From the IMG/VR virus record IMGVR_UViG_2541047595_000021: a DNA stretch of 10,454 nt. One strand, written 5' to 3'. The stretch's first letter is position 1; each line of letters starts with the position of its first letter. A model generated the notes under the pieces. It was not told the origin of the DNA, ran no database searches, and saw only the letters and a list, made by a program, of their open reading frames with translations. Origin of the DNA: a virus (taxonomy: Duplodnaviria; Heunggongvirae; Uroviricota; Caudoviricetes). Position numbers and translations under genes: made by a program. This document shows, in pieces, positions 587 through 10,454 of this stretch.

Positions 587-1792
587 GTGGCAAGAACGAC
601 ACGCCCCCTGACCAACACAGAAGTTCTGCGCGCTAAAGCGTTAGAAAAGGATCTAACGTTACATGATGGCGATGGCCTTTTTCTGCTCATTAAAACGAAC
701 GGTAAGAAGTTGTGGCGTTTCCGTTATCAACGTCCAGCAACAAAACAGCGGACAATGATGGGGCTTGGTGCTTTCCCCGCCCTTTCACTTGCTGATGCTC
801 GACGGTTAAGAGCGGATTACCTTGCTTTGTTGGCTAATGGTATAGACCCACAAGTTCAAGCTGAATTTATCGAAGAACAACAACAGATAGCTCTAGACAG
901 TATTTTTTCGACTGTTGCGACCAACTGGTTCCAGATAAAAAGCAAAAGTGTTTCCCCTGATTACGCTAAAGATATATGGCGCTCGCTGGAAAAAGACATA
1001 TTCCCAGCCATTGGAGAGATTCCCGTCCAACAAATCAAAGCCCGTACGCTAGTCGAAGCTCTTGAGCCAATCAAAGCTCGTGGGGCTCTTGAAACTGTAC
1101 GTCGACTGATACAGCGGATTAACGAGATAATGATTTACGCTGTAAACACTGGTCTGATTGATGCCAATCCAGCATCGGGGGTTGGGATGGCCTTTGAGAA
1201 GCCCAAAAAGCAAAACATGCCAACATTGCGGCCAGAAGAATTGCCGAAGCTGATGCGTTCTTTAGCTATGTCAAACCTATCTGTTTCGACTCGCTGTCTC
1301 ATTGAATGGCAACTCCTGACACTTGTGCGTCCTTCTGAAGCCTCTGGTGCTCGTTGGGCAGAGCTCGATCTTGATACAAAGCTCTGGACTATTCCGGCAG
1401 AGAGAATGAAAGCCAAACGAGAGCACATTGTTCCTTTATCACCCCAAGCTTTAGATATTTTGGAAGTGATGAAGCCCATCAGTGCTCATCGTGAACATAT
1501 TTTTCCTAGCAGAAATGATCCTAAGCAATCAATGAATAGCCAAACTGCTAATGCAGCTTTAAAACGTATTGGTTTTGGAGGAAAGCTAGTTGCTCATGGC
1601 CTCCGATCTATTGCAAGTACAGCAATGAATGAAGCTGGGTTCAATGCGGATGTTATTGAAGCAGCTTTAGCTCACAGTGATAAAAATGAAGTTCGTAAAG
1701 CCTATAATCGTTCAACCTACCTGGTTCAAAGAAAAGATTTAATGAACTGGTGGGGATTATTTTGTATTAGTTCGAAGAGTGTGAATAAATGA
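587..1792 (+). CDS. int: Tyrosine recombinase, P4-type integrase (N-terminal arm-binding DUF4102-like domain), ssrA-specific
   Basis: GTG start with AAGGAG 9 nt upstream. N-terminus LTNTEVLRAKA...DGDGLFLLIKTNGKKLWRFRYQ is the typical P4-integrase arm-binding motif. C-terminal catalytic motifs HGLRS and AHSD...RKAYNRSTY (H-x-x-R ... Y). Directly adjacent to a tmRNA gene. Confidence 0.9.
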   Translation: MARTTRPLTNTEVLRAKALEKDLTLHDGDGLFLLIKTNGKKLWRFRYQRPATKQRTMMGLGAFPALSLADARRLRADYLALLANGIDPQVQAEFIEEQQQIALDSIFSTVATNWFQIKSKSVSPDYAKDIWRSLEKDIFPAIGEIPVQQIKARTLVEALEPIKARGALETVRRLIQRINEIMIYAVNTGLIDANPASGVGMAFEKPKKQNMPTLRPEELPKLMRSLAMSNLSVSTRCLIEWQLLTLVRPSEASGARWAELDLDTKLWTIPAERMKAKREHIVPLSPQALDILEVMKPISAHREHIFPSRNDPKQSMNSQTANAALKRIGFGGKLVAHGLRSIASTAMNEAGFNADVIEAALAHSDKNEVRKAYNRSTYLVQRKDLMNWWGLFCISSKSVNK

Positions 1793-3426
1793 ATACTTAT
1801 AAGCAAACCATTAAACAAAAATCAAGATTAAACATATGGGAAACAGCTATCGCAAGGTTGACAACCCAAGCTGAGAGCTCAAGAATCTTAGAATCAAACT
1901 ATTTAACAAATCTTATAGATTTTTGTTGGAAAGATACACTAAATCAAGTTGCTATATATGATGAGAGCATTGTATTACGCAATGGTTATAATTGGGTGCA
2001 AAAAATAAGTGATAGTTATAAACCTAAAGCTGCAAGTGAACTAAAGATTGCTTTCTTTTGCGGCCCTGAACCAGAAAATGACTTGGATATACTCTTATCA
2101 TTAGATGTTAGAATAGAAAATGTCTGGGCTTTTGAAATTGATAACAATTCATATAACACTGCCTTACAAAAAGCTAAAGAGTTCTATCCAAAATTAAAAA
2201 TATTCCCTGGTTCTATTGGGGAGTTTTTTAAAACCACACATCATACCTTTGATATTATTTACCTTGATTTTACAAGTTCGTTATTGACTAAAAAGAGCCC
2301 TCCCCTTGGAGTAATAAACTCTGTATTTGACAATCAGGCCCTATCAGACTTAGGGGTGTTAATTGTAAACTCTTGCGAACCCGATGCTAACGAAGATAAC
2401 GCAACATTTCTTGCAAGTTATTTCATGAATCACGAAATAATTGAATCATCTGTAATTAACAAAACTAATGATGATGATTATGATGATAACTATGATTATT
2501 TTTCACTTTTTATTGAATCCCCCACATCACAAGGATACGATGATATAAAGTCATTAGCAAAAGTTATAAAGACTAACATATCCGGAGCGTACTCTGCCTT
2601 TTCAACAAGTTATGTAATGCACTATGCTTCAATGATTAGTCCAACACTTCGTTTTCTACAAAATAACTCATTAAAAAGACAATTATTTAATGATAAAAAA
2701 GCTGAAGTAACTGCAACCTTTGCAGAAATTGGATCAACTGACTTTTTCAAAACATTAATATCAACAGATGGTGAAGCATCGTCCCCCTCCATTTTAGGAA
2801 ACAGATTCCTAGATAATGAAAGCTACCCATTCTGGAATTTCATTGATTCATTAAATGGCTCAGGAACAAGTATTTCATCTTACTTTAAGAGCTTTTTCAC
2901 CACCGCTAAAGAAGGTGTATCCATTTTAAATGCCGTGCAATTTCTGGAATCATTTCACTCAATGCTTACAGGAGCTAGAAAGCTATTATCTCAGCGAATG
3001 CTCAATGCAATACCCCAAATAATAAAAGCAATTCCTGATGCTAGAGGTGGTTTATTCTGTGACATTCCTTTACCCCACCTTTGGTTAGAGGTGGCACTTA
3101 ATCAGTTAGGTGCACCATACCATGTAAACGTGAAAATGCATAATCGATGGAAATATAAAGCAAAAACTCGCACAATGCATACGGACTTATTTGTTTTTGA
3201 TAGATGCAGAGGTTTTTATGACTCAATGCCTATGATAGATCAATACGAAACGATTCTTACTAACATCGAAGAACAAATTTTCGCTAGGTGTTGTATTGAT
3301 ATTATTGGTAAGCAATGTCGTTGGCCAACTCCAAAACTTTATTTTGGTTCGAACCTAATTGGAATAAACGAGTCTGATTGGTCTGAGTTCGCCGAACTTC
3401 GTGAAAGAGAAATTATAAAAGAATAA
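1789..3426 (+). CDS. Hypothetical protein, 545 aa; sole cargo gene in the int-to-cos hotspot; candidate anti-phage defence or abortive-infection protein, function unknown
   Basis: Long uninterrupted ORF whose ATG overlaps the int stop (ATGA). Strongly AT-rich with AT-rich codon usage (AAA, AAT, ATT, TTA), unlike the GC-rich psu/delta/sid/alpha backbone. Residues about 85-165 (KIAFFCGPEPEND...VWAFEID...FDIIYLDF) look like a Rossmann-type nucleotide-binding fold, but this is a weak guess. Acidic D/Y-rich segment NDDDYDDNYDY encoded at 2467..2499. Confidence 0.8.
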   Translation: MNTYKQTIKQKSRLNIWETAIARLTTQAESSRILESNYLTNLIDFCWKDTLNQVAIYDESIVLRNGYNWVQKISDSYKPKAASELKIAFFCGPEPENDLDILLSLDVRIENVWAFEIDNNSYNTALQKAKEFYPKLKIFPGSIGEFFKTTHHTFDIIYLDFTSSLLTKKSPPLGVINSVFDNQALSDLGVLIVNSCEPDANEDNATFLASYFMNHEIIESSVINKTNDDDYDDNYDYFSLFIESPTSQGYDDIKSLAKVIKTNISGAYSAFSTSYVMHYASMISPTLRFLQNNSLKRQLFNDKKAEVTATFAEIGSTDFFKTLISTDGEASSPSILGNRFLDNESYPFWNFIDSLNGSGTSISSYFKSFFTTAKEGVSILNAVQFLESFHSMLTGARKLLSQRMLNAIPQIIKAIPDARGGLFCDIPLPHLWLEVALNQLGAPYHVNVKMHNRWKYKAKTRTMHTDLFVFDRCRGFYDSMPMIDQYETILTNIEEQIFARCCIDIIGKQCRWPTPKLYFGSNLIGINESDWSEFAELREREIIKE

Positions 3427-6321: not shown

Positions 6322-6917
6322 TGATGCCCGCTCTGCAAAAACTCCCTTTTTCTGGCTTGCCTTTTTCCGGCATTTGCGGATATAGTTTTCCCGCTGCCGC
6401 AAAATCGGCAGCCGGGCGTGGAAACCCGAGCAATCTAACGGCGACATATGACGCGCCATGCGTCTTTTTTTGTGTCGCAATCAACGCCACAGAGCGCCAG
6501 ATTATGGTGTGGTGTGTGGTCAGTCGAGCAGATGGCACTCCGTGCATCCTGCCCGCGTCCGCTCATTATGCCGCAGAGTCAATGGTAGCTCAGGCGGGGC
6601 AGCCTCCGGGCTGGCCGGTATCCGTTAGAGCCGGTATTTCCACCCCCGTCTGGGCTATCGCCATCGAGCGTGGAAACTCCGGCGATAGCGTAACCTGCTA
6701 TCTAACGGAGGCTGCCATCATGGCTACAACCCTTACCCCTTCACACCCTGAATTTGTCTTTGTGTTTGCGGCTGTCCGTCGCGCAGACCGTCATCCCCGT
6801 ATCTGCATGCTTCGCACCGTCGCCGGTGATGAACGCAGTGCCCGCCGTTCCCTTGTCCGTGACTATGTGCTCTCCCTTGCTGCCCGTCTGCCGGTGGTGG
6901 AGGTGTCCCGTGCGTAA
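6318..6917 (+). CDS. Long ORF (199 aa from the ATG overlapping the vis stop) spanning the immunity region; possibly kil-like with a nested in-frame gene, or largely spurious
   Basis: Open frame across a GC-rich regulatory region. Its ATG overlaps the vis stop (ATGATGATG). P4 is reported, as I recall, to have nested kil/eta genes in this region. No good ribosome-binding site, and long spurious ORFs are common in this GC-rich stretch. Confidence 0.3.
6357..6386 (+). promoter_or_regulatory. Candidate sigma70 promoter (PLE-like): -35 TTGCCT, 18-nt spacer, -10 TATAGT
   Basis: Hexamers at 6357..6362 and 6381..6386, just downstream of vis and upstream of the seqA element. Pattern match only. Confidence 0.35.
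6418..6441 (+). promoter_or_regulatory. seqA-like element (GTGGAAA...TCTAACGG), RNA target complementary to seqB
   Basis: Contains GTGGAAA and TCTAACGG separated by 9 nt. The reverse complement of 6622..6643 contains the same two blocks. Confidence 0.5.
6450..6471 (+). terminator. Short hairpin plus T7 tract; possible intrinsic terminator or attenuator within the immunity region
   Basis: GACGC-gccat-GCGTC followed by TTTTTTT. The stem is only 5 bp, and the position between seqA and seqB is awkward if seqB must be transcribed from the same promoter. Confidence 0.3.
6622..6643 (+). ncRNA. cI: seqB-like core of a putative CI-type immunity RNA (antisense to seqA and seqC; RNA ends undetermined)
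   Basis: CCGTTAGAgccggtaTTTCCAC is the reverse complement of the GTGGAAA...TCTAACGG blocks found at 6418..6441 and 6669..6708. This three-way arrangement matches the P4 CI RNA immunity system as I recall it. Confidence 0.45.
6669..6708 (+). promoter_or_regulatory. seqC-like element; its TCTAACGG block overlaps the Shine-Dalgarno of the ORF starting at 6720
   Basis: GTGGAAA (6672..6678) and TCTAACGG (6701..6708), with the GGAGG ribosome-binding site at 6707..6711. A 9-bp hairpin (6652..6660 with 6681..6689) encloses the GTGGAAA block. Confidence 0.5.
6720..6917 (+). CDS. Small protein, 65 aa (eta-position nested ORF), function unknown
   Basis: ATG at 6720 with a strong GGAGG 8 nt upstream. 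In frame with, and nested in, the longer ORF. Its stop overlaps the GTG start of the next gene. Confidence 0.45.
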
Positions 6918-8115: not shown

Positions 8116-10454
8116 ATGAAAATGAACGTAACCGCCACCGTCAGCCATGCGCTCGGCCACTGGCCGCGTATTCTCCCGGCGCTGGGGATTCAGGTGCTGA
8201 AAAACCGTCATCAGCCCTGTCCGGTCTGTGGCGGGAGTGACCGCTTCCGTTTTGATGACAGGGAGGGGCGCGGCACCTGGTACTGCAATCAGTGTGGTGC
8301 CGGTGACGGCCTGAAACTGGTTGAAAAGGTGTTTGGTGTCTCCCCGTCCGACGCGGCCGCAAAGGTGGCTGCCGTGACCGGCAGCCTGCCCCCGGCTGAC
8401 CCGGCAGTGACGGCTGCCGCCGGTGCTGAAACAGACGCTGCCCGGAAGAACGCCGCCGCACTGGCACAAACCCTGATGGCGAAAACCCGTCCCGGAACCG
8501 GTAACGCCTACCTGACCCGCAAGGGCTTTCCCGGCCGGGAATGCCGGATGCTGACCGGCACACACAGAGCCGGTGGCGTGAGCTGGCGTGCCGGTGACCT
8601 TGTGGTGCCACTGTATGACGACAGCGGCGAACTGGTTAACCTTCAGTTAATCAGTGCTGACGGCCGTAAGCGCACCCTGAAAGGCGGACAGGTCAGGGGC
8701 ACCTGTCACACCCTTGAAGGACAGAATCAGGCCGGAAAACGTCTGTGGATAGCGGAGGGATACGCGACCGCACTTACCGTGCATCACCTGACCGGTGAAA
8801 CGGTGATGGTGGCGCTTTCTTCCGTGAACCTCCTTTCTCTGGCCAGCCTTGCCCGGCAGAAGCATCCGGCCTGTCAGATTGTCCTTGCCGCAGACCGTGA
8901 CCTCAGCGGTGACGGCCAGAAAAAAGCCGCCGCAGCCGCAGATGCGTGTGAAGGTGTTGTTGCCCTGCCGCCGGTCTTCGGTGACTGGAATGATGCCTTC
9001 ACGCAGTACGGCGGGGAGGCCACCCGTAAGGCCATTTACGATGCCATCCGGCCACCGGCTGAAAGCCCGTTCGACACCATGAGTGAAGCGGAGTTTTCCG
9101 CCATGAGTACCAGCGAAAAGGCCATGCGTATCTATGAGCATTACGGCGAGGCGCTCGCGGTCGATGCCAACGGCCAGCTTCTGTCCCGCTATGAAAATGG
9201 TGTCTGGAAGGTGCTGCCGCCACAGGACTTTGCCCGGAATGTGGCCGGGCTGTTTCAGCGGCTGCGCGCGCCGTTCTCCTCCGGGAAGGTGGCCTCCGTG
9301 GTGGACACCCTGAAGCTGATTATTCCGCAGCAGGAAGCCCCCTCCCGCTGCCTGATTGGCTTTCGTAACGGCGTGCTCGACACGCAGAACGGCACGTTCC
9401 ACCCGCACAGTCCGTCACACTGGATGCGTACCCTGTGCGATGTGGATTTCACCCCGCCGGTGGAAGGGGAAACGCTGGAAACCCACGCCCACGCGTTCTG
9501 GCGCTGGCTTGACCGTGCCGCCGGTGGCCGTGCGGAAAAACGCGACGTGATTCTGGCCGCACTGTTTATGGTGCTGGCAAACCGCTATGACTGGCAGCTC
9601 TTTCTGGAGGTGACCGGTCCCGGCGGCAGCGGCAAAAGTATCATGGCCGAAATAGCCACCCTGCTGGCCGGGGAGGATAACGCCACGTCGGCCACCATTG
9701 AGACGCTGGAATCCCCGCGTGAACGTGCCGCGTTAACTGGCTTCTCACTGATACGCCTGCCGGACCAGGAAAAATGGAGCGGCGACGGAGCCGGACTCAA
9801 GGCCATCACCGGCGGCGATGCAGTGTCCGTTGACCCGAAATACCGGGATGCGTACTCCACGCATATCCCGGCGGTGATTCTGGCCGTGAACAATAAAATA
9901 ACCCGATGCGCTTCACCGACCGCAGCGGCGGCGTGTCACGCCGGCGGGTGATTATTCACTTCCCGGAACAGATAGCCCCGCAGGAGCGCGACCCGCAGCT
10001 TAAGGACAAAATCACCCGCGAGCTGGCGGTCATCGTGCGTCACCTGATGCAGAAGTTCAGCGACCCGATGCTCGCCCGGTCACTGCTTCAGTCCCAGCAG
10101 AACTCAGACGAGGCACTGAACATCAAACGGGATGCCGACCCGACGTTTGATTTTATCGGCTATCTGGAAACCCTGCCGCAGACCAGCGGCATGTATATGG
10201 GGAACGCCAGTATCATCCCGCGTAATTACCGTAAATACCTCTATCACGCCTATCTGGCCTACATGGAGGCAAACGGCTACCGGAATGTACTCAGTCTGAA
10301 AATGTTCGGGCTGGGGCTGCCGGTGATGCTGAAGGAATACGGACTGAATTACGAGAAGCGCCATACCAAACAGGGGATACAGACCAACCTGACACTGAAA
10401 GAGGAAAGCTACGGCGACTGGCTGCCAAAATGTGACGCCCGTGCAACAACCTGA
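8116..10454 (+). pseudogene. alpha: Alpha primase-helicase (zinc-ribbon primase, TOPRIM, SF3/D5-type helicase, C-terminal DNA-binding domain), interrupted by a +5 frameshift near 9892..9901
   Basis: AAGGAG ribosome-binding site 9 nt before the ATG. Zinc-ribbon CPVCGG...CNQC, TOPRIM acidic motifs (IAEGY, LAADRD), Walker A VTGPGGSGKS. Reading frame 1 stops at 9951 and frame 0 continues from 9906 to the stop at 10452..10454. Combined length is about 777 aa, as for P4 alpha. The breakpoint coincides with a tandem AATAA-AATAA. Confidence 0.75.

Follow-up and report, generated by a model that had tools for sequence, protein, structure and literature searches.

A tandem AATAA duplication splits the alpha primase-helicase gene of a P4-type satellite prophage in one Escherichia coli draft assembly

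Replication of satellite phage P4 depends on its essential alpha protein, which has known primase, helicase and ori-binding activities and attaches to the ori repeats by a C-terminal winged helix (PMC8628076; PMC4234260). Some P4-like satellites lack core genes or carry them as pseudogenes; Type B variants and elements in which alpA is frameshifted are examples (PMC8628076, Moura de Sousa and Rocha 2021), and P4-like variants without detectable alpha also exist (PMC8628076). The element analysed here resembles the satellites with an alpA pseudogene in having a frameshifted core gene in an otherwise complete P4-like element, but pseudogenes of alpA occur often and are kept in several clades, whereas the alpha lesion reported below was found in a single assembly. 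The cryptic P4-like prophage CP4-57, at ssrA in E. coli K-12, is likewise a P4-family genome inserted at the 3' end of the tmRNA gene; CP4-57 is extensively decayed, whereas the present element has a complete P4-type genome with one lesion.

The window (the whole stretch of 10,454 nt that was analysed) carries a complete P4-type satellite prophage at ssrA in which alpha is frameshifted. Its gene order runs from ssrA through the integrase, a 545-aa ORF, psu-delta-sid (on the minus strand), alpA/ORF88, the CI (C4) RNA region, epsilon, ORF151 and ORF106 to alpha, and the window ends at the alpha stop codon. The left end is organised as follows.

40-402: ssrA (tmRNA), 295.8 bits; the window begins 39 nt before the gene
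587-1792: integrase, 401 aa, used instead of the 440-aa P4 integrase

All seven P4-like core components were present in P4 order, alpha in frameshifted form only; the others were recognised as the integrase, Psu (PF07455), Ogr_Delta (PF04606), a 244-aa sid homologue, AlpA (PF05930) and Derepression/epsilon (PF25738). The satellite lacks cII, beta and gop of P4. Its identity to P4 is 98.1% over the 7.3 kb that run from psu to the end of crr, within which both the ori and the crr region of P4 align, and the two 120-nt crr repeats, which P4 replication requires in cis, lie just past the window (10501-10620 and 10681-10800 in window coordinates; contig 12386-12505 and 12566-12685). No direct repeat of at least 16 nt that could mark attL and attR was found between the end of ssrA and the region after crr. 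No gene besides alpha is disrupted in the element, in keeping with the first-pass annotation of this DNA, which had proposed that the satellite may be defective in replication but retain its cargo and capsid-hijack genes.

Within the alpha homologue, the pentamer AATAA occurs twice in direct succession on the plus strand (9892-9896 and 9897-9901), in the sequence GTG AAC AAT AAA ATA ACC CGA TG (9886-9908), and the gene is split into two open reading frames. The features of this region are listed here, with the limits of the Zn-ribbon, Toprim and D5_N domains as given by Pfam for the repaired 777-aa alpha.

9892..9901 (+): AATAA-AATAA tandem duplication, a surplus of 5 nt against all homologues examined
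8116..9951 (+): truncated alpha ORF, 611 aa, predicted mass 65.2 kDa
alpha residues 30-66: Zn-ribbon (PF08273, Zn_Ribbon_Prim), retained in the 611-aa ORF
residues 210-299: Toprim (PF13362, Toprim_3), with EGYATA at 214-219 (8755-8772), retained
residues 336-467: D5_N (PF08706), retained in the 611-aa ORF
residues 500-593: remainder of the SF3 NTPase (PF19263), retained
9616-9639 (+), residues 501-508: Walker A, GPGGSGKS, retained
9748-9771 (+): Walker B region, LIRLPDQE, retained
9871..9902 (+): SF3 motif C region, AVILAVNNN where alpha is intact, here broken up by the duplication
9906..10454 (+): C-terminal remnant of alpha, out of frame, 182 aa from internal Met596; the frame is open from 9897
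9927-9962 (+): Arg-rich segment GGVSRRRVIIHF, within the 182-aa remnant, out of frame
10131..10430 (+): part that encodes alpha residues 671-770, the winged-helix origin-binding domain

The first frame closes with ...PAVILAVNNKITRCASPTAAAACHAGG*, which forms the C-terminal end of the 611-aa ORF, while the other frame, NNPMRFTDRSGGVSRRRVIIHF..., stays open to the last base of the window; it reads NNPMRFTDRSGGVSRRRVIIHFPEQ... and its stop codon is the final triplet of the window. A five-sequence alignment with P4 and three E. coli elements showed a single, clean 5-nt insertion in the window. Compared with P4 gp-alpha (NP_042036.1 in NC_001609; 777 aa), the gene is 98.1% identical at the nucleotide level from end to end (2339 nt here against 2334 nt in P4), and 12 of 777 amino acids differ once the 5 nt are removed. 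The two share the order Zn-ribbon, Toprim/EGYATA, D5_N, SF3 NTPase and winged-helix ori-binding domain, and also their neighbours, ORF106 upstream and crr downstream of alpha. Unlike in P4, the frame is broken at codon 594, which leaves the Arg segment and the ori-binding domain outside the protein. A perfect tandem repeat of two 5-nt units is by itself unremarkable (8 were observed in the window against 7.4 +/- 2.6 in shuffled sequences), and the AATAA repeat is significant because of the comparison with homologues and the broken frame rather than as a repeat. The sequence contains no Ns and the duplication site is not at a scaffold join.

The break lies within the Asn run of motif C (V591-N592-N593-N594), a motif that we assign in alpha partly on the strength of established knowledge of SF3 helicases. 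The truncated protein consists of wild-type residues 1-593 followed by 18 frameshifted residues (KITRCASPTAAAACHAGG); it thus keeps AVNN, with the first two Asn of the motif, and has Lys in place of the third, N594. Distant homologues were used solely to locate the break relative to the catalytic motifs: the staphylococcal island primase-helicase (7OLA/7OM0; E = 5e-8) and vaccinia D5 share with alpha the D5_N and SF3 NTPase domains, Walker A/B and the motif C Asn, followed by an Arg segment, and 7OLA (SaPI-type) aligns across the break (VILAVNNNPMRFTDRSGGVSRRR against VIQSTNGMPKFKDKTGGTLRR) with the pattern N-x-x-P-x-F...GG..RR. In the C-terminal half of the repaired alpha, Pfam placed DUF5906 (the SF3 NTPase) at 500-608 and Pox_D5 at 670-768. 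In the 611-aa product, the DUF5906 match is cut at 593 of 608 and Pox_D5 is removed, the latter being contained in the 182-aa remnant. The solved origin-binding domain of P4, PDB 1KA8, matches residues 671-770 at 100% identity, and this domain is no longer in frame with the primase-helicase. The 611-aa product therefore has the Zn-ribbon with the Toprim/EGYATA primase and the D5_N domain with the SF3 core that characterise P4 alpha-type proteins, and the Arg segment and winged helix are not joined to them in one polypeptide. Judged from its sequence, the gene reads as alpha by descent and, as written, as a pseudogene allele.

These results bear out the main observations of the first-pass annotation, which had described an AATAA tandem duplication as the cause of a frameshift in alpha at SF3 motif C, expected a single +5 insertion on alignment to P4 alpha, and noted an Arg-rich segment after the Asn run; this segment is out of frame, and the Pfam and 1KA8 matches place the C-terminal origin-binding domain likewise out of frame. 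The truncated product of about 66 kDa that it foresaw is close to the predicted mass. Its location of the break at motif C also holds, although the lesion lies inside the Asn run, at N594, and not just after the motif as had been stated.

By exact lookup, the 611-aa and 182-aa products correspond to CCP98056.1 and CCP98057.1 of E. coli O10:K5(L):H4 ATCC 23506 (Bi 8337-41); the alpha split thus already appears in GenBank in the form of two annotated CDSs. Both products were found on one contig only, CAPK01000194.1, from which the window comes (for the 611-aa product, among ~15 billion proteins). The 2013 draft genome of ATCC 23506 was produced from HiSeq 2000 101-bp paired reads (~28 M reads) assembled with Velvet at k=93, with a reported coverage of ~38-fold (PMC3593327).

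Searches of 5,426 complete E. coli genomes with a 601-nt query around the site returned 1,305 matches in 1,083 genomes, the best of which were identical except for the 5-nt gap (596 nt, 99.2%), and with a 96-nt query the best match was 91/96. The duplication was present in none of ~1,280 alpha copies in these genomes (0/~1,280). A 50-nt query, built so that only carriers of the duplication could give a 28-nt seed, likewise gave zero matches among the complete E. coli genomes, and exact 38-mer scans for the duplication gave zero in GTDB representative genomes, IMG/VR and JGI metagenomes.

The nearest complete genomes (MMC-J-0105, Z0117EC0055 and E27) are separated from the window by six SNPs and the 5 nt within the element; two of the three also differ at three bases upstream of ssrA. 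Five of the SNPs are coding (2122, 2945, 4662, 6367 and 10441) and one is intergenic (3516). All five coding changes are nonsynonymous, and from the nearest genomes to the window they read I112V and R386L in the cargo protein, A37E in delta, F17S in the Icd-like protein and P774R in alpha; the last falls downstream of the break.

When alpha was repaired in silico and looked up by exact sequence, the repaired 777-aa protein was found to exist, as WP_115197795.1 (P0031), as STJ64390.1 on a 5.23-Mb contig, as HAH9057307.1 and in Logan. This intact allele (WP_115197795.1 / STJ64390.1 / HAH9057307.1) is the same protein, including the private R774, and its gene has one AATAA where the window has two. 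The private cargo and delta alleles were found on seven contigs; the NCBI assemblies that have them number four, and one of these bears the name O10 str. Bi8337-41, a synonym of ATCC 23506. Of the seven contigs, those of CAPK01, DABDAE01, DAOJUC01 and Logan ERR3062224 were compared at the nucleotide level, the other three being the 5.2-Mb contig and two contigs of 20-50 kb. Contig DABDAE010000024.1 (GCA_012738635.1) equals the CAPK01 source contig over 15,316 nt save the 5 nt, and the Logan assembly of ERR3062224 equals the whole window save the same 5 nt. Since DABDAE01 and Logan ERR3062224 may derive from the same reads, the intact allele was taken to have at least two independent sources, with STJ64390.1 as the second. 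The intact element carries all six lineage-specific SNPs together with the 777-aa alpha, and alpha is intact in every other sequencing of the genotype that covers the site. The six SNPs are true lineage markers, because the assemblies with intact alpha share them, and the duplication alone is private to CAPK01, because its twin is identical but for the 5 nt; the lesion is thus confined to a single assembly or stock. Zero substitutions in 15.3 kb between the two alleles indicate a very recent separation, and such a split would fit divergence of a culture-collection stock rather than long-standing inactivation.

One contig of this genotype, DAOJUC010000063.1 (GCA_029729415.1), stops near window position 8390, short of the duplication site and still within the 5' part of alpha. 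To judge from the TPA accessions, GCA_029729415.1 is probably the assembly named O10 str. Bi8337-41. The break of this contig in alpha may reflect a second alpha-like copy in the strain, which could complement the defect or complicate assembly.

The reading that we favour, and regard as probable, is that the duplication is a real mutation that arose very recently, is private to one stock or clone and abolishes the function of its alpha gene. It would have arisen as a 5-bp tandem duplication through strand slippage or misalignment during replication, in the culture of ATCC 23506 (Bi 8337-41) that was sequenced in 2013; small tandem duplications are a classic class of spontaneous mutation. The frameshift would truncate alpha after residue 593, with loss of the Arg-rich segment, presumed to supply the arginine finger for inter-subunit ATP hydrolysis in the SF3 hexamer, and of the C-terminal winged helix that binds the ori/crr iterons. 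The truncated alpha is predicted to be unable to recognise ori/crr or to complete an inter-subunit ATPase site. Autonomous replication of the satellite should therefore fail, and an excised element would be unable to start its own replication. Integration, immunity (the CI/C4 RNA), manipulation of the helper (epsilon, delta, sid and psu) and the cargo gene in the hotspot are all untouched. The defect could be masked by a second alpha-type gene or by rare reversion through loss of one repeat copy.

The main competitor to a real mutation, less likely than it and in our estimation doubtful, is that the extra AATAA is a sequencing or assembly artefact of the 2013 Velvet draft and that the alpha of the strain is truly intact. 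Such an error would account for the confinement of the duplication to CAPK01, for the intact state of the identical element in GCA_012738635.1, Logan ERR3062224 and STJ64390.1, and for the fact that one of the assemblies sharing the private cargo and delta alleles bears the same strain name, O10 str. Bi8337-41; it is also conceivable that Velvet collapsed a bubble from a second alpha-like copy, given that the same-genotype TPA contig ends in alpha near 8390. However, HiSeq chemistry rarely produces indels, its errors being mostly substitutions, and every 93-mer of a Velvet contig built at k=93 must occur in the reads, such that a 5-nt insertion would have to dominate deep coverage in order to survive in the de Bruijn graph. 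The assembly is also locally clean, because no other difference was found over 15,316 nt or across the window, and the site is away from any contig join. The same identity of the twin over 15.3 kb weighs against domestication, which the first-pass annotation had proposed. On that reading, loss of alpha would have immobilised the satellite, and selection on its cargo and anti-helper genes would have maintained it. The intactness of all other genes, the position of the cargo gene in the known psu-int defence hotspot and the existence of P4-like variants that lack detectable alpha would suit this proposal; yet the lesion is shared by none of the complete-genome copies and had no exact match in the three large collections, an intact 777-aa allele that is otherwise identical leaves no time for selection or its signature, and secondary decay is absent. 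Domestication did not hold up under this comparison and we consider it very improbable. An equally slim chance attaches to the idea that a real duplication was selected in a laboratory or collection lineage, either because it ends a costly plasmid-state replication or because a 21-kDa origin-binding fragment blocks ori/crr in trans; in the latter variant, which is put forward as a possibility, the fragment would be translated separately, starting at ATG 9906 behind a newly formed A/U-rich leader, and would be trans-dominant against incoming P4-like satellites that are related to this one. If the selected-inactivation or the blocker reading were true, a mobile satellite would have been converted in one step into a fixed immunity or defence island.

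A functional two-frame arrangement, in which either a programmed -1 frameshift restores alpha or the two ORFs act as separate subunits, is the least credible of the readings and in our view hardly tenable. It draws on the observations that the downstream frame would be regained by a -1 shift at any point in 9897-9948, that the remnant ORF starts with ATG and that the duplication puts an A/U-rich tract just upstream of it. The split, however, cuts through the ATPase core, parting sensor-1 from the Arg segment, and a conserved two-frame arrangement in homologues, which the first-pass annotation had named as the finding that would speak for programmed frameshifting, was sought and did not appear in any of the alpha copies in complete E. 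coli genomes. No slippery heptamer of the form X XXY YYZ occurs between 9886 and 9949, the overlap included, and programmed frameshifting was rejected on these two grounds. Independent translation of the 182-aa remnant is likewise unlikely: no Shine-Dalgarno sequence precedes ATG 9906, where pairing with the anti-Shine-Dalgarno sequence was +0.4 kcal/mol, against -7 to -11 kcal/mol at the real starts of the element. The exception among the latter is the 545-aa cargo ORF (-3.3 kcal/mol), the ATG of which overlaps the int stop codon.

On the favoured reading of a recent private mutation, this is an ordinary lesion in a well-known gene and is not evidence of domestication; the alpha gene, its domains and the effect of truncation are textbook P4 biology and add little significance of their own. 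The case has two practical consequences. A satellite census that scored this element as one without intact alpha would log a stock- or assembly-specific lesion and not a natural variant, and the duplication site needs to be checked before ATCC 23506 is used as a donor of a P4-like satellite. More generally, a lone frameshift in one draft assembly should not be called domestication before sister genomes have been checked.

Two further parts of the element are of interest apart from alpha. The psu-int hotspot, which in P4-like satellites houses anti-phage systems (PMC9122126), is occupied here by the 545-aa ORF (1789-3426, plus strand). Its product had no match in Pfam, PADLOC or PHROGs, and its 90%-identity cluster includes Salmonella enterica proteins, one of them on 172 contigs; the ORF is a candidate for an undescribed defence gene. 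In the immunity region, Rfam identified C4, c4-a1b1 and isrK at 6380-6665, with isrK (an Hfq-binding sRNA family; 75.4 bits) at 6393-6470 overlapping the c4-a1b1 target element, which lies upstream of the CI RNA. Three sites (6433-6441, 6621-6629 and 6700-6708) differ from P4 in concert: the two target-like sites read TCTAACGG (P4: TTCACAGG) and the loop of the CI/C4 RNA reads CCGTTAGA (P4: CCTGTGAA). Complementarity between the RNA and its targets is thus kept with a changed sequence, which implies an immunity specificity differing from that of P4.
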